Below the pieces are notes generated by a model. The model saw only the letters and a program-made list of their open reading frames with translations. It made no database searches and was not told the origin of the DNA. A stretch of DNA of 64,000 nucleotides from Clostridiales bacterium (GTDB taxonomy: Bacteria; Bacillota; Dehalobacteriia; UBA7702), in NCBI GenBank assembly GCA_040766525.1, contig JAXGQI010000007.1:3166-67165 (forward strand), given 5' to 3'. How positions within the stretch are numbered: position 1 is the stretch's first letter; the number at the start of each line of letters is the position of its first letter. Positions 5,159 to 63,896 of this stretch are shown in pieces. Both the position numbers and the translations under genes were made by a program.

Positions 5159-6897
5159 ATGAAAGTATTGATGACGGGGAATGAAGCCATCGCAAGAGGC
5201 GCTTGGGAAGCCGGCGTTCGGGTCGTTGCCGCTTACCCCGGGACCCCCAGCACGGAAATAACCGAGAATGCGGCCAAATATGAGGAGCTGTATGCGGAAT
5301 GGGCCCCCAATGAAAAAGTTGCCATGGAGGTGGCGATTGGCGCCGCTGTCAGCGGCGGCAGGGCTTTGGCTTGTATGAAGCATGTCGGCGTCAATGTGGC
5401 TTCCGACCCCTTGATGACGGTGGCGTTTACCGGCGTCAACGGCGGTTTGGTTTTGGTTTCTGCGGATGATCCGGGGATGCACAGTTCCCAAAATGAGCAG
5501 GACAATCGGCAATATGGGCGTTTGGCCAAAATTCCGGTTTTGGAACCTGCCGATAGCAGTGAAGCCCTGGCTTTTACCAAAATGGCTTTTGAGATCAGCG
5601 AAACTTTTGATACGCCCGTGATGTTAAGGATCACCACCAGGGTTGCCCACTCACAGTCCCTTGTCGAGCTGGGAGAGCGGGTGGAAATCCCCTTGAAGCC
5701 CTATGAAAAAGACCCGGCAAAATTTGTGATGATCCCGGCCCATGCCCGTCCCCGCCACAGTATTGCCGAAGCGCGGCTGGATAAATTAAGAGCATACGGG
5801 GAACAGACCGCTTTAAACCAAGTGGAGATCAATGATCGGAAGATCGGCATCATCACCAGCGGTATCGTTTATCAATATGTGAAGGAAGCTTTGCCCAACG
5901 CTTCCGTTTTGAAGTTGGGCTTGACCAATCCCCTGCCGAAGCAGCTCTTGATCGATTTTACGGCCCAGGTAGAAAAGGTCTATGTGATTGAAGAGTTAGA
6001 CCCGATCATTGAGGAGCATTGTCGGATCCTGGGGCTGTCGGTCATCAGGGAAAAGATCTTTAGCTTAGAAGGCGAGATCTTCCCGGAAATTATTGCCCAA
6101 AAATTCTTGGGGAAGAGCTTCCGATTCCTTATCGTTATGAGGGCGTTATGCCAAACCGTCCTCCGGTTCTTTGCGCCGGTTGCCCCCATCGGGCGGCCTT
6201 CTATGTGATGAAAAAGCTGAAACTCCATGTGATGGGAGATATCGGCTGTTATACTTTGGGTTGTTTGCCGCCTTTGCAGAGTATTGACACCACGGTCTGC
6301 ATGGGGGCCAGTATCGGGATGGCCTTAGGTGCGGAAAAAAGCTCGGGGCAAGGAATTTGCGAAAAAATCCGTGGCGATTTTGGGGGATTCCACTTTTATC
6401 CATTCCGGGATAACCGGGCTTATCGATACGGTCTATAATAAAGGGATGACGACGACGATGATCCTGGATAATCGGATCACCGCTATGACCGGGCATCAGG
6501 AGAATCCTTTGACGGGGCGCCGTGTCAGCGGGGAGCCGACGAAGGACATCTCCTTAGAGCTTTTGGTCAAAGGGTTGGGGATTGACCGTATTGCGGTCGT
6601 CGACCCCTTCGACGTTAAGGAATTGGAGCCGGATTTTGAAAGAAGAATTGGCGGCGGAGGAACCCTTCCGTGATTATCAGCCGCCGGCCTTGCGCACTTT
6701 TAGAGCGGGAAGAGAAAGAGCCCTGCCGCATCGACCCGGAACGCTGCATGCGTTGTAACCGTTGTTTGAAGATGGGCTGCCCGGCAATCGTGAAGACGGA
6801 TGCAGCTCCCTTTATCGATGCTTCCCAATGCGTCGGCTGCGGTCTTTGTGTTGCAATTTGCCCCCACGGGGTCATCGAAATGGAGGGGAAAGACTGA
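5159..6897 (+). pseudogene. iorA: indolepyruvate:ferredoxin oxidoreductase alpha subunit, frame-disrupted (at least 4 shifts)
   Basis: N-terminus MKVLMTGNEAIARGAWEAGV. The sequence continues through ORFs 5102-6208, 6148-6438, 6329-6673 and 6670-6897 in different frames (..PPVLCAGCPHRAAFY.., ..AILGDSTFIHSG.., 2x CxxCxxCxxxCP ferredoxin motifs). Shifts map to short homopolymers, e.g. the A6 run at 6335-6340. Confidence 0.85.
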
Positions 6898-7484
6898 TGG
6901 AAACAACGAAAAATATCCTGATCGTCGGTGTTGGCGGACAAGGTACGATTTTGGCCAGCAGAGTATTATCCCAGCTTTTGATCTCCCGTGGTTATGATAT
7001 CAAAGTTTCCGAAATCCATGGGATGTCCCAGCGGGGCGGAAGCGTTACCACCCAGGTGCGCTTCGGCGAGAAAGTGTATTCGCCGATCATTGCCCCGGCA
7101 TCCGCCGATTATATTTTGGCATTTGAAAAATTGGAAGCCCTGCGCGCGCTGCCGTTTCTGAAAGAAGGCGGTCACTTGATCGTGAATGACCAAGTCATCG
7201 ACCCGATGCCCGTCGTTATTGGCGCCCAGCAATATCCGAAGGATATCGATGCTTTTTTGGCGAAGAGCGGCATCCATTATACCCTGCTCCATGCCCGGGG
7301 CATGGCATTGAAGGCGGGGAACGCGAAAGCCGTCAACATGGTATTATTAGGGGCCTGGGCAAAGATTTGGGGTCTCGACCTTGAAGAAGGAAAAGGGATC
7401 TTGGAAGCGAATATCCCGAAGAAGTTTTTAGAAGTCAATCTCGTCGGCTTTGAAATGGGATACCGTGCCGCGGAAAGAGCGTGA
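6897..7484 (+). CDS. iorB: indolepyruvate:ferredoxin oxidoreductase beta subunit
   Basis: METTKNILIVGVGGQGTILASRVL... The ATG overlaps the iorA stop (ATGA-type coupling at 6895-6899). 195 aa, the typical IorB size. Confidence 0.9.
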   Translation: METTKNILIVGVGGQGTILASRVLSQLLISRGYDIKVSEIHGMSQRGGSVTTQVRFGEKVYSPIIAPASADYILAFEKLEALRALPFLKEGGHLIVNDQVIDPMPVVIGAQQYPKDIDAFLAKSGIHYTLLHARGMALKAGNAKAVNMVLLGAWAKIWGLDLEEGKGILEANIPKKFLEVNLVGFEMGYRAAERA

Positions 7485-7490
7485 GAAACA

Positions 7491-7742
7491 GTGAAATCGT
7501 ATGCCGGTCTGCAAAAGGGAAAAGAGATCCGTTGTTCCCGTTGTTTTGATAGGCCAGGGGAGATTTGCCGCTATGGCTGTGATGAACAAGGGTTTTGGTT
7601 CATTGCGCCCTGTAAAAGCTGTGGAGCTTGGATCAAGTGGTATCGTTCCCCGGAGGGGGAAACCTTTGTGGAAAAGGAAGAGACCTCCTTTATCGTAGAT
7701 TTTGTGGACGGCGAGGCGGTATTGTCTTTAGCGAAAGAATAG
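7491..7742 (+). CDS. small Cys-rich hypothetical protein (possible zinc ribbon)
   Basis: 83 aa with a GTG start 6 nt after iorB. Two CxxC pairs (CSRC...CRYGC, CKSC). No family recognised. Confidence 0.4.
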   Translation: MKSYAGLQKGKEIRCSRCFDRPGEICRYGCDEQGFWFIAPCKSCGAWIKWYRSPEGETFVEKEETSFIVDFVDGEAVLSLAKE

Positions 7743-7761
7743 AATGAAATGGAAACAATAG

Positions 7762-7981
7762 ACCCGCAAGCCAACTAACATCGGCTTGCGGGTTTTCGTC
7801 TGCGGGCAATGGCCGATAGCGTCGTCAAACCAAAGCCCCTGACCGCTTGTGTATGTCCGTATACACGGCGCGCCCAGGGCCTTTGTCTTTCCTAGCTCTA
7901 GGCCCTTGACCACAGCCTCTCATCTTGCCGACTTCGTCGACAATCTGACCGCAAGCCAACATTGGCTTGCGGGTTTTCGTC
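7762..7981 (+). repeat. palindromic repeat family, copy A (core 7801-7947) bracketed by a duplicated terminator hairpin
   Basis: The core aligns to the copies at 36.8, 43.5 and 61.3 kb (GCCGATAGCGTyGTCAAACCAAAGCCCCTGACCGC...CCAGGGCCTTTG...CCTAGCTCTAGGCC...GTCGACAATCTG). Flanks 7762-7800 and 7948-7981 are imperfect direct repeats of the hairpin ACC(C)GCAAGCC..GGCTTGCGGGTTTTCGTC. Confidence 0.85.
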
Positions 7982-7999
7982 TTAGGGCAAAAGTTTCTC

Positions 8000-8052
8000 T
8001 TGACAAAAAAAGGGAAAGGGGCTAAATTATTCTTGAATGAGGATAATTTAGC
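8000..8052 (+). promoter_or_regulatory. putative promoter plus perfect 10-bp inverted repeat (candidate HxlR operator)
   Basis: TTGACA (8000-8005), 17 nt, TAAATT. GCTAAATTAT (8021-8030) and ATAATTTAGC (8043-8052) are exact reverse complements overlapping the -10 region. Confidence 0.45.
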
Positions 8053-8088
8053 CCTAAAAAATTTCCCTATGCCGAATAGAGAGGAAGG

Positions 8089-8466
8089 ATGAGAATGGAA
8101 CGGACCTTGAGAGATCATTTAAAGACCCGCTTCACTCATGGTGAATTTACTTGTAAAAAAGAACTGACTTTGTCCATCATCAGCGGAAAATGGAAATCCG
8201 CTATCGTCTATCATTTGGGACATCAAGGTACTTTGCGCTACGGTGAGCTGAAAAAGTACTTGGATGTTTCCGTGAGCCATCGGGTTTTGACGAAGCAATT
8301 ACGGGAATTGGAACAGGATGGCATTATTGCAAGAGAAACCTATCCCACGGTGCCGCCCCGGGTGGAATACAGTATCACACCGATGGGGTTGACCTTATTG
8401 CCCTTGATCGAGCAGCTCCTCGATTGGGGGGAAGCCCATATTGAGTATTATCGGGAATTGCTTTAG
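8089..8466 (+). CDS. HxlR-family winged-helix transcriptional regulator
   Basis: 125 aa. KWKSAIVYHL..GTLRYGELKK...SHRVLTKQLRELEQDGIIARE.YPTVPPRVEYSITPMG is the HxlR signature. An alternative start is at 8095. Confidence 0.85.
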   Translation: MRMERTLRDHLKTRFTHGEFTCKKELTLSIISGKWKSAIVYHLGHQGTLRYGELKKYLDVSVSHRVLTKQLRELEQDGIIARETYPTVPPRVEYSITPMGLTLLPLIEQLLDWGEAHIEYYRELL

Positions 8467-20291: not shown

Positions 20292-20441
20292 ACCGCTGAG
20301 ACTGCAGATAAAAGCCGATAGCGTTGTCAAATCAAAGCCCCTGGCCGTAATGGTTGTCCATACTGTACTGCCCCAGGAAAAACGGACATTGAAAAGAATC
20401 CCCCAAACGTAGGATAATAAACTTACGAATGGGGGATTGTC

Positions 20442-20744
20442 ATGTCAAAAAGAAGATATACAAAAGTTCAGGAGCTGTTACCGGAAATCAAAGGAATGCT
20501 CGCGGCAGGATGTACCCATAAAGAAATTGCGGCATATTTTCAGCTGCAAGGAGATCGGCCTGTGCATCAGCTGTTAAAAAGAGAAAGAAGGAAGGAAAGA
20601 AAAGCAGAGTTCGGAATTGTACCGCGCCGCCCTGGTCGCCCGAAAAAGGATGCGGCGGAGGAAGAAAAAGAATATAAAATCAAGCGGCTAGAGATGGAAA
20701 ACCGGTTATTGCGGGATTTTCTTCGTGCCGCTGGAAGGAAGTGA
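20442..20744 (+). CDS. IS3-family transposase OrfA (HTH)
   Basis: 100 aa with an HTH plus leucine-zipper-like C-terminus (KIKRLEMENRLLRDFL). It overlaps orfB by 4 nt, and orfB is in the -1 frame. Confidence 0.85.
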   Translation: MSKRRYTKVQELLPEIKGMLAAGCTHKEIAAYFQLQGDRPVHQLLKRERRKERKAEFGIVPRRPGRPKKDAAEEEKEYKIKRLEMENRLLRDFLRAAGRK

Positions 20745-21598
20745 GGCCATCTGTCAAGTATGAAATCATCTATTTCCGCAAAAATCAATATCCGGTAGCT
20801 ACGATGTGCCGCTTCTTTGGCGTATCCCGCAGCGGTTATTACAACCATATACAGCATAGAGGTAAACCGGAGAAAGATGCTGCTTTGTCAAAAATAATTG
20901 CGGAATGTCAACAGCGCTGCGGGAGCACCTATGGATACCGTCGTGTTTGTTTATGGTTAGTGCGAGAAAAGAATTTGCGTCTTAATCCCAAGACGGTACT
21001 TCGTGTGATGAACAAATACGGACTGCTTTCAGAAATTCGCCGTACTAAGAAATATAAGCGCATGGGTCAACAGCTGCACAGATATGAGAACCTGTTAGAT
21101 CGCAACTTTATTGCTACGCGTCCTAATGCTAAATGGGTAACCGATATTTCTTACATTCATACGGCCCAAGGCGTGCTCTATTTGTCTATGATTCGCGATC
21201 TATATGATCATAGCATTGTTGCCTATCAGACCGGGACAAAACAAACCGTAAATCTTGTATTAAAAACGATTATAGCGGCAATGGAGAAAGAAGAAGTCGC
21301 TGCGGAGTTACAGCTCCACAGCGACCAAGGGCTTCAATACACTTCTCTTGGGTATTTTAACCTAACCAAAGAATATGGCATTACGCCATCGATGTCAAGA
21401 CGCGGGAACTGTTATGACAATGCCATGGCGGAAAATTTCTTCTCCATTCTCAAAACGGAGTGTATATATCGGCAGAAAATCAAAACCTTCGATGAAGCTC
21501 GATTTCTTATTGACGAATACATTGATTTCTATAATAATGAGCGTATACAAACAAAAACAAGCCTGACGCCGCTGGAAAAACGACGTCAAGCTGTCTGA
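20741..21598 (+). CDS. IS3-family transposase OrfB (DDE integrase core)
   Basis: WVTDISYI.. (D), ..LHSDQGLQYTS (D), ..GNCYDNAMAENFF (E) rve-type catalytic triad. Confidence 0.9.
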   Translation: MRPSVKYEIIYFRKNQYPVATMCRFFGVSRSGYYNHIQHRGKPEKDAALSKIIAECQQRCGSTYGYRRVCLWLVREKNLRLNPKTVLRVMNKYGLLSEIRRTKKYKRMGQQLHRYENLLDRNFIATRPNAKWVTDISYIHTAQGVLYLSMIRDLYDHSIVAYQTGTKQTVNLVLKTIIAAMEKEEVAAELQLHSDQGLQYTSLGYFNLTKEYGITPSMSRRGNCYDNAMAENFFSILKTECIYRQKIKTFDEARFLIDEYIDFYNNERIQTKTSLTPLEKRRQAV

Positions 21599-21796
21599 TT
21601 TCACGATATTCTATGTTAGGGTCTTCTTTTCCCTGTCCTTTTATTTCGGGGCAGTACAGTCTAGATACGCTGCGCGTCCAGGGACTTTGCTTTTCCTAGC
21701 TCTAGGCCTTTATCTGCAGCCTCTCATCTTGCCGACCTTGTCGACAATCTGGGCCGTGCGGTTAACCGCACGGCCTTTCGACTGTCAATAAAGTGC

Positions 21797-21986
21797 TTAT
21801 AGCTGTGTTCCAGCAAAACCGCAGACCGCTCATGTACGTCTCTGTACACGTCGCGTCCTGCGGTTTTTCTGCGCCTTGCTCTAAACCCTTTCTTGGCAGT
21901 CTCTTGTTTTATGAGAAAGCGAGGGTTTTTCGACGACCTGTCATCCTGTAGGCCAAAATCCGCTTTCAGTCTCTTTTGTCTACAGT
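21797..21986 (+). repeat. variant (type B) copy of the palindromic repeat family
   Basis: GCTTATAGCTGTGTTCCAGCAAAACCGCAGACCGCTCATGTACG...GTACACGTCGCGTCCTGCGGTTTTT... aligns to the type-A core with paired stem substitutions. Its 3' segment CGACGACCTGTCATyyTGTAGGCCAAAATCCGCTTTCAG recurs at 48438-48475. Confidence 0.6.
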
Positions 21987-21989
21987 TTA

Positions 21990-22018
21990 GCGGCCCTACC
22001 GTAGTACGGTAGGGCCGC
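21990..22018. other. perfect 13-bp GC-rich hairpin (terminator-like) between the repeat cluster and the convergent minus-strand gene
   Basis: GCGGCCCTACCGT-AGT-ACGGTAGGGCCGC, followed on the + strand by a T-rich stretch. Confidence 0.4.
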
Positions 22019-36787: not shown

Positions 36788-36813
36788 ATTTGTGGGATAT
36801 GGGCAGAGCGCCC

Positions 36814-36960
36814 GAGACTGCAGATAAAAATCGATAGCATTATCAAACCAAAGCCCCTGACCGCTTCCGTATGTCTATATACGCCACGCGTCCAGGGCTT
36901 TTGTTTTTCCTAGCTCTAGGCTTTTCTCTCCAGTTTCCCATCAGGTCTACAGGATGACCG
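36814..36960 (+). repeat. palindromic repeat family, copy C (3' end diverged)
   Basis: GAGACTGCAGATAAAAATCGATAGCATTATCAAACCAAAGCCCCTGACCGCTTCCGTATGTCTATATACGCCACGCGTCCAGGGCTTTTG..CCTAGCTCTAGGC... Only a short GCAG(A/GG)AGCGC flank similarity is present. Confidence 0.75.
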
Positions 36961-61234: not shown

Positions 61235-61447
61235 AGATCCTCCAAATTTTGGAGGATCTGCTTTGAGACAGCAGACAAAAGCCGATAGCGTTGTCAAACC
61301 AAAGCCTCTGACCGCTTATGTATCTCTATATACACTGCGCGTCCAGGGACTTTGCTTTTCCTGGCTCTAGACCCTTGTCTTCAGCCTCCCATCTTGCCGA
61401 CTTTGTCGACAATCTGAGATCCTCCAAAATTCTGGGGGATCTGCTTT
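61235..61447 (+). repeat. palindromic repeat family, copy E (152-bp core 61265-61416) bracketed by a duplicated 30-bp terminator hairpin
   Basis: AGATCCTCCAAATTTTGGAGGATCTGCTTT (61235-61264) is repeated as AGATCCTCCAAAATTCTGGGGGATCTGCTTT (61417-61447). Only the right copy keeps the long T-tract. Confidence 0.9.
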
Positions 61448-62252: not shown

Positions 62253-62500
62253 GAACGAAAGCCGGAGGGAAGGAGATTTCTTTCCGACTTGATATAGATA
62301 GAGCCGCTTGGAATTTTCCAAACGGCTCCTTAGACAGCAGACAAAAGCCGATAGCGTTGTCAACCCAAAGCCCCTGACCGCTTTCGTATGTTTGTACTGC
62401 CCCAGGAAAAACGGACATTGAAAAGAATCCCCCAAATGGTCATGGTATAATAAACTGGACAGAAAGAAAAGCGCGGAAAGGCGGAAAGGGAGTTCAGTTT

Positions 62501-62794
62501 ATGAAACGAGCAGTATATGACAAGCAATTTAAAATGGCCGCGGTAAAACTGGCACAAGGAACAAATCAGTCGGTTACGCAAACAGCCATTGATCTGGGAA
62601 TCAGCGGCAGCAGTCTGCGTAGATGGATCAACGAATATGATGAATATGGAGAAAGTGCGTTTCCAGGGCATGGGAACGCACTTTTTAACTCTACGTATGA
62701 AATCAAGAAACTACAAAAGCAAATTGATGATTTAAAAATGGAGAACGAAATACTAAAAAAACTCCAGGCCTTCTTGAAAGTAAAGAATGTGTGA
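62501..62794 (+). CDS. IS3-family transposase OrfA
   Basis: HTH (..SVTQTAIDLGISGSSLRRWINEY..) plus a leucine zipper. The A7 slippery run at 62755-61 near its 3' end fits a programmed -1 frameshift into orfB. Confidence 0.9.
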   Translation: MKRAVYDKQFKMAAVKLAQGTNQSVTQTAIDLGISGSSLRRWINEYDEYGESAFPGHGNALFNSTYEIKKLQKQIDDLKMENEILKKLQAFLKVKNV

Positions 62795-63648
62795 GGTTCC
62801 AGTTTCTAAAAGAAAATCAAAAGAAATACAATATTCAGAAGGCCTGTAAAATTTTGAAGATCTCACGCAGCGGTTATTATGATTATCTGAAACGTCGAAA
62901 AAGTAAACGTGCGATTGAAAATGAAGTGCTATCGGAAATGATCGAAGACATTTTCCATGAAAACAAAGGGCGTTATGGTGCAAGGCGTATACAAAAGGTA
63001 TTGGAACAAAAGAATATCAAGGTCAATCCTAAAAGAGTTTCCCGCTTAATGAGTGAACATGGTTTAATTGCAAAAGGGACGCGAAAATTCTATCGGTATC
63101 AGGCAAACAAAAACGCTTATGATGAAAAAGAAAATATCCTTAATCAAGTATTCAAAGCAAATGAAAGAAATCAGATATGGGTCGGCGACATCACATACAT
63201 CCCAACAAAACACGGTTGGCTTTATTTGGCTGTTTTCATTGATATTTTTTCTCGTAAGGTAACGGGATGGGCTATGGATACTAGAGTTCGTGATATATTG
63301 GTTTTATCAGCACTTAATCAGGCCGTTGGCAGAGAACATCCCACAGAGGGATTGATCATTCATACAGACCGGGGATCCCAATATACATCTCAGCGCTTTC
63401 AGTCTATGTGTATTCGTTACGGATTCCGACAAAGTATGAGTCGTAAAGGAAATCCTTATGACAACGCAATTATGGAATCGTTCTATCGTACTTTAAAAAG
63501 AGAGCTTGTTCAGGATGCAAAATATGACAACCCTGAACAAGCTCGCATGGATATCTTTAAATATATTGAGACTTATTACAATACCAAACGTATTCATTCG
63601 GCCCTCAATTGGCTTTCTCCAACTCAATTTGAGGCCCAGTATGTTTAA
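62791..63648 (+). CDS. IS3-family transposase OrfB (DDE)
   Basis: WVGDITYIPT (D), IIHTDRGSQYTS (D), GNPYDNAIMESFY (E). Confidence 0.9.
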   Translation: MRFQFLKENQKKYNIQKACKILKISRSGYYDYLKRRKSKRAIENEVLSEMIEDIFHENKGRYGARRIQKVLEQKNIKVNPKRVSRLMSEHGLIAKGTRKFYRYQANKNAYDEKENILNQVFKANERNQIWVGDITYIPTKHGWLYLAVFIDIFSRKVTGWAMDTRVRDILVLSALNQAVGREHPTEGLIIHTDRGSQYTSQRFQSMCIRYGFRQSMSRKGNPYDNAIMESFYRTLKRELVQDAKYDNPEQARMDIFKYIETYYNTKRIHSALNWLSPTQFEAQYV

Positions 63649-63896
63649 TTAACCTTAATTCTCTGTCCATTTTTTCTTGACCTTTCCAGTTAGGGTCTTC
63701 TTTTCCCTGTCCTTTTATTTCGGGGCAGTACAGTTTAGATACGCCGCGCGTCCAGGGGCTTTGCTTTTCCTAGCTCTTGGCCTTTGTCTTATGTCTCTCA
63801 TCTTGTCGGCTTTGCCGACAAGATGAGGCCGACGTAGATTTGCGCCGGCCTTCATATTGTTTATGATTGATTTGTTTAAGCTGTTTTCATAATAAA

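Follow-up and report, generated by a model that had tools for sequence, protein, structure and literature searches.

IS1272, which belongs to the IS1182 insertion sequence (IS) family, targets terminator stem-loops without sequence specificity (PMC4923244; PMC5678879), and the studies on this element cite Siguier et al. for palindromic targets of some IS1182 members (PMC4923244; PMC5678879). In the model drawn for IS1272 by Wan et al. (PMC5678879, Fig. 13), the target palindrome extrudes as a cruciform and attack at its 3' feet removes the stem-loop. Route b of the same figure (PMC5678879) considers attack at the 5' feet of the cruciform, which leads to duplication of the stem-loop. The published work on IS1272 saw loss of the stem-loop, and the duplicating route is only predicted by the cruciform model. 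The present analysis concerns a short repeat, copy A, which lies between two copies of a terminator hairpin in a Clostridiales bacterium (assembly GCA_040766525.1, contig JAXGQI010000007.1, positions 3,166 to 67,165). This stretch of 64,000 nucleotides is referred to as the window and corresponds to G000:C50:3166-67165, where G000 is the window's own genome, a 67%-complete metagenome-assembled genome (MAG) with a 1.58-Mb assembly. Copy A is very probably a non-autonomous MITE, or miniature inverted-repeat transposable element, of IS1182 type, belonging to a family designated F1, with the terminator stem-loop as its target-site duplication.

The locus carries the following features, in window coordinates:

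7762-7796, forward strand: left copy of the target stem-loop, which is the left target-site duplication (stem 7762-7772 / 7783-7793, loop AACTAACATC, T-run 7793-7796)
7796-7947, forward strand: F1 MITE copy A, 152 bp (nhmmer 144.7 bits; 125/152 or 82% identity to the family consensus)
7796-7812, forward strand: degraded 5' terminal inverted repeat TCGTCTGCGGGCAATGG (consensus GAGACTGCAGACAAAAG), from the consensus alignment and comparison of the ends
7835-7880, forward strand: central long imperfect hairpin GCCCCTGACCGC...GCGCGCCCAGGGC followed by a T-rich run, from the fold; the insertion site of an IS3-family IS in other copies
7901-7919, forward strand: internal inverted copy of the 5' repeat, GGCCCTTGACCACAGCCTC (consensus GGCCTTTGTCTTGTGTCTC), from the reverse self-match of the family
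7921-7947, forward strand: 3' terminal hairpin CATCTTGCCGAC-TTC-GTCGACAATCTG, ending in the 3' inverted repeat of 15-16 nt (reverse complement CAGATTGTCGACGAAG)
7948-7977, forward strand: right copy of the target stem-loop with TTTT, forming the right target-site duplication, with the downstream context of the original site preserved

An earlier reading, made from the letters of the window alone (the sequence-only reading), had described a 147-bp core with an entire terminator on each side. The two flanks that it quoted are present letter for letter at 7762-7800 (ACCCGCAAGCCAACTAACATCGGCTTGCGGGTTTTCGTC) and 7948-7981 (ACCGCAAGCCAACATTGGCTTGCGGGTTTTCGTC), and both are flagged by the repeat finder as direct repeats (D1 and D4). 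The left hairpin folds with -21.0 kcal/mol (with the following bases) and the right one with -19.5 kcal/mol, each being followed by TTTT. Its claim that the hairpin is specific to this locus holds, as an arm 12-mer (CCGCAAGCCAAC) and a 14-mer (GGCTTGCGGGTTTT) each occur twice in the 1.58-Mb assembly and only here; likewise, copies D (43438-43459 / 43612-43633) and E (61235-61264 / 61417-61447) of the window have other hairpins. The statement that the duplicates differ only in the loop was too narrow, since a 1-nt indel in the 5' arm (ACCCGC versus ACCGC) accompanies the 4-nt loop indel and one C/T change. The similarity also reaches beyond the quoted flanks, to about 7755-7809 versus 7940-7990 (repeat finder and alignment). 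The limits of the core have to be redrawn, as the family consensus puts its start at 7796 and the element becomes 152 bp long (7796-7947). Hence TCGTC, the end of the quoted left flank, and the first 12 nt of the supposed core together represent the degraded 5' inverted repeat, which matches the consensus at 9/17; the 3' repeat has a single change (G for A).

The proposal that the duplicated part is derived from the target is supported for the hairpin and its TTTT and, in this simple form, not supported for the part past the TTTT (CGTC...GGGCAA), which on the left occupies the position of the element's 5' repeat. Target origin is supported by the private hairpin of each copy, by the abutment of the duplication on the element ends, by the same behaviour of IS1182-family ISs and by the single hairpin at the empty site of one such IS. 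Only short overlapping open reading frames (ORFs) cross the element, and a scan of 7400-8300 against Rfam with E-values up to 10 returned only sub-threshold chance matches on the hairpin. Copy A is an old insertion, as judged from its 82% identity to the consensus, its diverged duplicates and its decayed 5' repeat.

Copy A belongs to a large group of repeats in its genome. F1 has about 33 near-full copies in G000 (BLAST and nhmmer profile), most of them 92-98% identical to the consensus, and copy A is among the oldest. A sister family, F2, of about 163-165 bp has about 36 copies, and a rarer third form is also present. The three have common termini (GAGACTG... / ...ACAAnCTG), and F1 and F2 are dispersed over most of the contigs. 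All three are read as MITEs with IS1182-family ends. F1 is nearly palindromic overall, as seen from its reverse self-matches, and folds as a long hairpin with a separate 12-bp terminal hairpin; in the consensus its terminal inverted repeats, 5' GAGACTGCAGACAAA and the reverse-complemented 3' end CAGATTGTCGACAAA, agree at 12/15. In a set of 73 genomes from the class, only G000 and its congener G001 yielded F1-like sequences; in G001, at least one copy (L196) also lies between recognisably paired hairpins and the other copies are less clear.

A genome-wide census of the repeat with comparison of its flanks bears out the sequence-only reading, in that, as a rule, a locus-specific hairpin stands at the left end and the same hairpin follows the 3' end. 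For 45 F1 and F2 copies both ends could be placed automatically, and in 27 of these a duplicated stretch of 18-37 bp (median 26) begins at a distance of 0-3 nt from either end, with a mean folding energy of about -16 kcal/mol; the same test on 3000 random positions found a duplication at 4. Most of the remaining copies are X-F1-X-F2-X arrays (e.g., C1:19129-19475), X-[F1-Y-F2]-X composites or pairs in which the stem is kept and the loop has diverged.

The same behaviour is seen in full-length ISs with matching ends. A Clostridiales MAG of the same family (G006) has three identical 1602-bp ISs, with ends CAGCCTGTAGACAAAG... / ...TTTTGTCTACAAGCTG and a transposase scoring 447 bits against NF033551 (cut-off 270) in an NCBIfam search of relatives. 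Two of them are flanked by duplicated hairpins of 25 and 28 bp and the third by a 6-bp repeat. With this transposase as the query, 80 loci were obtained from many Bacillota, 43 of which allowed the two ends to be placed. Of these 43 ISs, 37 lie between perfect direct repeats of 19-33 bp that begin at offset 0 to the left and right, and all of the duplications are stem-loops (-8.5 to -21.4 kcal/mol); over MITEs and ISs together, the observed lengths are 6-37 bp. The terminal repeats of the surveyed ISs are CAGACTGTAGACAAA / CAGATTGTCGACAAA. The F1 3' end, reverse-complemented, reads CAGATTGTCGACAAAG, its consensus (CAGATTGTCGACAAA) is the same sequence that several IS1182-family ISs have as their right repeat, and the F1 5' end agrees with the IS repeat at 13/15. 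The related transposases belong to the IS1182 family (448-476 bits in NCBIfam, cut-off 270), and the two examined with Pfam show DUF772, DDE_Tnp_1 and DDE_Tnp_1_6. F1 may have arisen from such an IS by internal deletion, an origin that would predict subterminal hairpins in the IS, and the G006 ISs do carry terminator-like hairpins just inside both ends. A search of the 184 fetched loci with the F1 and F2 profiles found no IS with the F1 interior, and hence no direct parent among them.

Some of these loci have features of their own. At L013 (G006:C3, 1480-3069) the IS1182 transposase frame has no stop codon within the IS and reads through the right repeat into the duplicated hairpin and flank (529 versus 485 amino acids); the same read-through of a stop-less frame was noted for TnSha1 by Furi et al. 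L027, L082 and L095 are full-length ISs with two different flanking hairpins and no duplication, as would be expected from IS-IS recombination or from a mixed replace/duplicate event. In Peribacillus butanolivorans (G041), the 15-mer CAGACTGTAGACAAA occurs 26 times and its reversed control 0 times, a count that may pool IS ends with solo ends and MITEs.

An uninterrupted site could be examined for one of the ISs. In P. butanolivorans, a 1755-bp IS lies between 32-bp repeats (AAAGAGGGTGATCCAAATAGATCACCCTCTTT). When its flanks were joined through a single repeat (660 nt), the joined sequence matched contiguously in 18 congeneric genomes at 75-83% identity, and a single homologous hairpin was found at the site in each of the four congeners inspected. 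In two other Peribacillus genomes (G050:C38:7217-9114 and G053:C1:1540899-1543301) this terminator has gained 1.3-1.8 kb, the site being either a hot spot or an inherited insertion. The 37 of 43 ISs, the roughly 27 MITE copies and this IS site, uninterrupted in 18 congeners, demonstrate that insertion usually takes the duplicating route in a large Bacillota IS clade and its MITEs.

The two hairpins of a pair are not always alike. Four MITE copies have the left loop in reverse-complemented form on the right, and in one copy (C2:19884) the hairpins show a compensatory stem-pair difference. That the right hairpin is an inverted copy made at insertion was considered and rejected, since all 37 IS duplications are perfect and direct; loop flips and compensatory changes are therefore attributed to post-insertion evolution of palindromes. 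Constant orientation of the element with respect to the T-tract was likewise rejected, as A-rich sequence before the left hairpin and T-runs past the right one are equally common. The left hairpin usually has two or three T before GAGAC (TTTT follows both hairpins in copy A), and the mean T count in an 11-nt interval is 2.9 after the left hairpin versus 5.4 after the right one. It is therefore likely that some transcription continues into the MITE and terminates at the right hairpin.

From these observations we infer cruciform capture with strand transfer at the 5' feet, mobilisation in trans and near-neutrality of the insertions, as follows. The F1 MITE would be moved in trans by a DDE transposase of the IS1182 family, as suggested by the shared ends. 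The transposase would pick a DNA stem-loop and not a sequence, the target here being the terminator after an oxidoreductase operon and a small ORF. Each of the two transposon 3' ends would be linked to one target strand at a 5' foot of the stem-loop, and these feet are points that lie one whole hairpin apart in linear DNA and would lie side by side in the extruded cruciform. Repair of the two single-strand gaps would copy the whole stem-loop and 0-4 T to both sides of the element, so that the duplication would equal the target hairpin and vary in length by site (18-37 bp). As both neighbours keep a hairpin, the insertions would probably be near-neutral, and copies could accumulate and stack.

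The joints do lie at the two feet of the stem, with a spacing equal to the length of the stem-loop that varies with the target. A DDE transposase has a fixed active-site geometry and makes a fixed stagger on B-DNA. The target-dependent stagger therefore suggests that the structure of the target itself brings the two attacked phosphates close to each other. It seems an evenly balanced proposition that the transposase of this IS1182 clade reads DNA shape, that is, captures an extruded stem-loop (a cruciform, or a single-strand hairpin at a fork) and joins at its 5' feet, the target setting the length of the duplication. If this is true, it would be a DDE transposase with a structure-defined and variable stagger, and the roughly 70 MITE copies with the many ISs would be a natural record of terminator hairpins extruding in living cells. 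Duplication of the terminator would then be a built-in way to keep both neighbouring genes terminated, and the mild co-orientation with transcription described below would hint at a strand-specific step outside the symmetric cruciform model.

Several points weigh against the interpretation of copy A as an IS1182-type MITE that duplicated its target stem-loop. In the experimental studies, insertions of IS1272 and TnSha1 remove all or part of the stem-loop and make no duplication (PMC4923244; PMC5678879). As many as 49 of 63 elements are co-oriented with the upstream gene (22 versus 11 in tandem-gene contexts), and a symmetric cruciform predicts random orientation; this bias may reflect selection or a strand-specific step. 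In the 67%-complete G000 and in G001 no IS1182-family transposase was found above the cut-off; weak IS5-like matches (up to 63 bits) occur only in G000 and none in G001, G000 being incomplete and ISs often being unassembled. Among inverted-repeat pairs 300-4000 bp apart in G000, close matches to the repeat at both ends were found only where an IS3-family IS splits an F1 copy. The sole congener, G001 (about 74% nucleotide identity), offers no empty site for copy A and is not colinear there: the flanking genes are present but separated by about 1.2 kb of other sequence, and the intergenic region is unalignable. G001 is likewise not colinear at copy E. The best metagenome contig, L104, obtained with the upstream protein as the query (81% amino-acid and 75% nucleotide identity), has one hairpin of different sequence after the small ORF and ends 40 nt later, so that this single hairpin is only suggestive of the empty state. 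Finally, the 5' repeat of copy A is badly diverged and a similar piece stands past the right hairpin, both of which a plain one-step insertion leaves unexplained:

7977-7993, forward strand: 17-nt piece TCGTCTTAGGGCAAAAG after the right hairpin (repeat finder, alignment and comparison by eye)

This piece agrees with the 5' end of copy A at 13/17 (16/20 with the three preceding Ts) and with the 5' repeat consensus at 10/17. The favoured explanation is a solo repeat remnant, which a second insertion or an unequal exchange between the two hairpins would have left and which would then have been homogenised with the repeat next to it; G000 has solo ends and stacked arrays at other loci. A possible but rather doubtful alternative is that the duplication of copy A is unusually long, about 50 bp, comprising the hairpin and 17 nt of native flank, and that the element lost its 5' repeat or never had one. 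The similarity does span 7797-7809 versus 7978-7990, reaching 7809/7990, and in G001 the same promoter is preceded by a loosely similar stretch, CTATGGG...TTCCTTGACA, so that TCTTAGGG could be native flank. For the IS1182 family, the ISfinder table gives duplications of 0 to 60 bp. Against such a long duplication, no gap is needed to align the left piece with the consensus of the 5' repeat, and the 10/17 positions at which the right piece matches the consensus include CAAAAG, which the left piece has lost. A long duplication would, moreover, be expected to leave an intact repeat, which is absent at copy A, and a solo remnant formed by a second insertion, or by unequal crossing-over with gene conversion, fits equally well where X-F1-X-F2-X arrays are known.

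It is far less probable that the locus already had two tandem terminators and that the repeat landed or recombined between them with nothing being duplicated. Tandem terminators exist in bacteria, and neither G001 nor the metagenome contig yielded the empty site of copy A. However, among same-sequence perfect hairpin pairs within 3 kb in G000, 18 of 20 bracket an F1 or F2 element; of the two others, one lies in a 2.4-kb tandem duplication and the other shares only a 10-mer. Tandem hairpins without the core, which the sequence-only reading had named as the finding that would overturn it, were not seen in this list of pairs from G000. Hence pre-existing tandem terminators are not credible as a general source, all the more as about 27 independent loci would each need a private pair spaced one element apart, and the uninterrupted site of a full-length IS with the same ends has one hairpin. 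The tandem duplication (about 2.4 kb, G000:C15:14250-16740) spans a 27-nt hairpin and its upstream 60 nt and is unrelated to MITEs.

Insertion without DDE transposition, by a retro-element or ribozyme-type element homing after terminators or by copy-choice at stalled forks or terminated transcripts, is scarcely plausible either. A position right after a terminator stem is a hallmark of class C group II introns, which insert directly downstream of intrinsic terminator stems, and a strand-specific mechanism would be in keeping with the modest bias of the elements towards the direction of the upstream gene. Yet no group II intron feature, nor any other Rfam match, was found at copy A in the Rfam scan, and the element has only 152 bp. 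Its inverted-repeat ends are identical to those of DDE ISs, flanking duplications are not made by introns, and the full-length partners encode IS1182 DDE transposases and not reverse transcriptases. That the hairpins are part of the repeat unit, as in an element or small-RNA gene with its own terminators at both ends, is practically untenable: near its 3' end F2 does have an internal terminator-like hairpin with a T-run, and a 12-bp hairpin closes F1, but the flanking hairpin differs at every locus, which already refutes the idea, the arms of the copy A hairpin occur only at its own locus, and no Rfam family matches.

Further copies of these MITEs in the window lie as follows:

43438-43633, forward strand: copy D, F1 at 43459-43611 between perfect 22-bp repeats AGAGGAGGGTTGCCCCTCCTCC; the GA end overlaps the left repeat
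61235-61447, forward strand: copy E, F1 at 61265-61416 between 30/31-bp repeats AGATCCTCC...GGATCTGCTTT
20296-21938, forward strand: array of a MITE left half (20296-20361), an IS3-family IS (about 20362-21658), an F1 right half (21659-21751), hairpin GGCCGTGCGGTTAACCGCACGGCC and F2 (21780-21938)
62329-63824, forward strand: F1 copy split by the same IS3-family IS, with halves at 62329-62395 and 63733-63824
36812-36949, forward strand: truncated or divergent F1 copy without clear hairpin duplication

The IS3-family IS (about 1.3 kb, orfA/orfB, ends TGTACTGCCCC...GGGGCAGTACA) is found in the loop of the central hairpin of F1 at a minimum of four loci (at least window 20362-21658 and 62396-63732, G000:C9:23884-25212 and C35:1-1900), with a duplication of apparently 3 bp (GTT). 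Either this IS targets the MITE hairpin or a MITE::IS composite was spread. The MITE halves at 20296-21751 are from different subfamilies, which suggests recombination between copies of the IS3-family IS. At 21780-21990, F2 is joined to F1 via the shared hairpin and is followed by a reversed piece of the third family (…CCTGTAGGCCAAAATCCGCTTTCAGTCTCTTTTGTCTACAGTTTAG) and another hairpin, so that three different MITEs are stacked at one terminator. Contigs C33 (4697-4851) and C22 (4552-4705) have the same F1 left flank and hairpin with different right flanks, and the right hairpin of C33 is the one left of the F1 copy at window 62329 (window 62260-62330). Either the assembly was joined through the repeat here, or MITE copies have really rearranged with one another in the population. 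As a mobiliser of F1 the IS3-family IS was rejected, its ends being different from those of F1. On the same ground, the IS5-like element that lies just upstream of the window (G000:C50:1100-2290, about 1.2 kb, ends GGGCAYCTCTAAAAAC, 350-amino-acid transposase frame) was rejected.

The genes around copy A are as follows:

6762-7484, forward strand: ORF of a 2-oxoacid:ferredoxin oxidoreductase subunit (Pfam POR, PF01558, 124.5 bits), the upstream gene
7491-7742, forward strand: small Cys-rich ORF of 83 amino acids (ORF list, Pfam scan), the last gene ahead of the terminator
8019-8054, no strand assigned: palindrome GGGCTAAATTATTCT/AGGATAATTTAGCCC with 15-bp perfect arms, adjoining a TTGACA box (repeat finder), kept in G001
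8089-8466, forward strand: HxlR-family regulator (PF01638, 99 bits), the downstream gene

The operon before the hairpin encodes Pfam POR_N and POR proteins. The small ORF gave no match in the Pfam scan and is kept in the metagenome contig L104 at about 75% nucleotide identity. The palindrome with its TTGACA box, outside the element, is probably the operator and promoter of the HxlR gene. From the position of the hairpin after the oxidoreductase operon and the presence of an HxlR gene with its own promoter, it follows that the copy A hairpin is the intrinsic terminator of the operon and the small ORF.

For annotation, these structured repeats of about 150-165 bp between paired hairpins are to be taken as IS1182-type MITEs, not as tandem terminators, small-RNA genes or leaders of riboswitch-like type. 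Every insertion turns one target hairpin into two, which explains the X-F1-X-F2-X arrays, and supplies dispersed repeats able to recombine. The clade is also a concrete and cheap system in which structure-directed target choice by a DDE transposase could be probed. The behaviour of copy A is ordinary for its genome and well explained; it is of moderate interest as clean evidence for structure-directed target choice.

Several known systems resemble copy A in part. Class C group II introns share its position; they are retroelements with a ribozyme and a reverse transcriptase, lack inverted repeats and do not duplicate their target. IS1397, ISKpn1 and other ISs targeting repetitive extragenic palindromes (PMC1525189) also have palindromic extragenic hairpins as targets; they enter the loop of one conserved repeat family with short duplications, whereas F1 takes any terminator-like stem-loop, which is duplicated whole. 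Classical MITEs such as Correia/NEMIS, RUP, ERIC and bcr1 (PMC10969869; PMC3184786) are likewise small, non-coding, multi-copy and intergenic, with inverted repeats, long hairpin folds and presumed trans mobilisation by a related IS. F1 has the corresponding traits of a MITE, with a length below about 400 bp, inverted repeats, a target-site duplication, many copies and ends shared with an IS. The duplications of classical MITEs are, however, 2-9 bp long and fixed (e.g., TA), and those of F1 are 18-37 bp long and set by the secondary structure of the target.

The closest described relatives are IS1272 and TnSha1 of staphylococci, which belong to the transposase family of the ISs with F1-like ends and share the stem-loop or terminator targets without primary-sequence specificity. 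F1 shows these IS1182-family traits, terminal repeats and stem-loop targets chosen without sequence specificity. IS1272 also has extra copies of its left repeat (IS1272L), loosely like the repeat-like piece beside copy A. In IS1272 and TnSha1 the stem-loop is lost, whereas in the F1 copies and in 37/43 of the related ISs it is duplicated whole; F1 thus lacks the stem-loop-replacing signature of IS1272, having a hairpin on both sides. Copy A also differs in being 152 bp long and non-coding, and the likeness drawn here is one of transposase family and target behaviour. The surveyed IS1182-family ISs (e.g., those of the Clostridiales MAG AnMBR.bin542, Bacillus sp. OV166, Peribacillus butanolivorans and Heyndrickxia shackletonii) differ from F1 in being 1.55-1.85 kb long (one outlier of 2.25 kb), in coding for the transposase and in having an interior other than that of F1. 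They share with it the terminal repeats, the duplications of stem-loop length that abut both ends and the subterminal hairpins.

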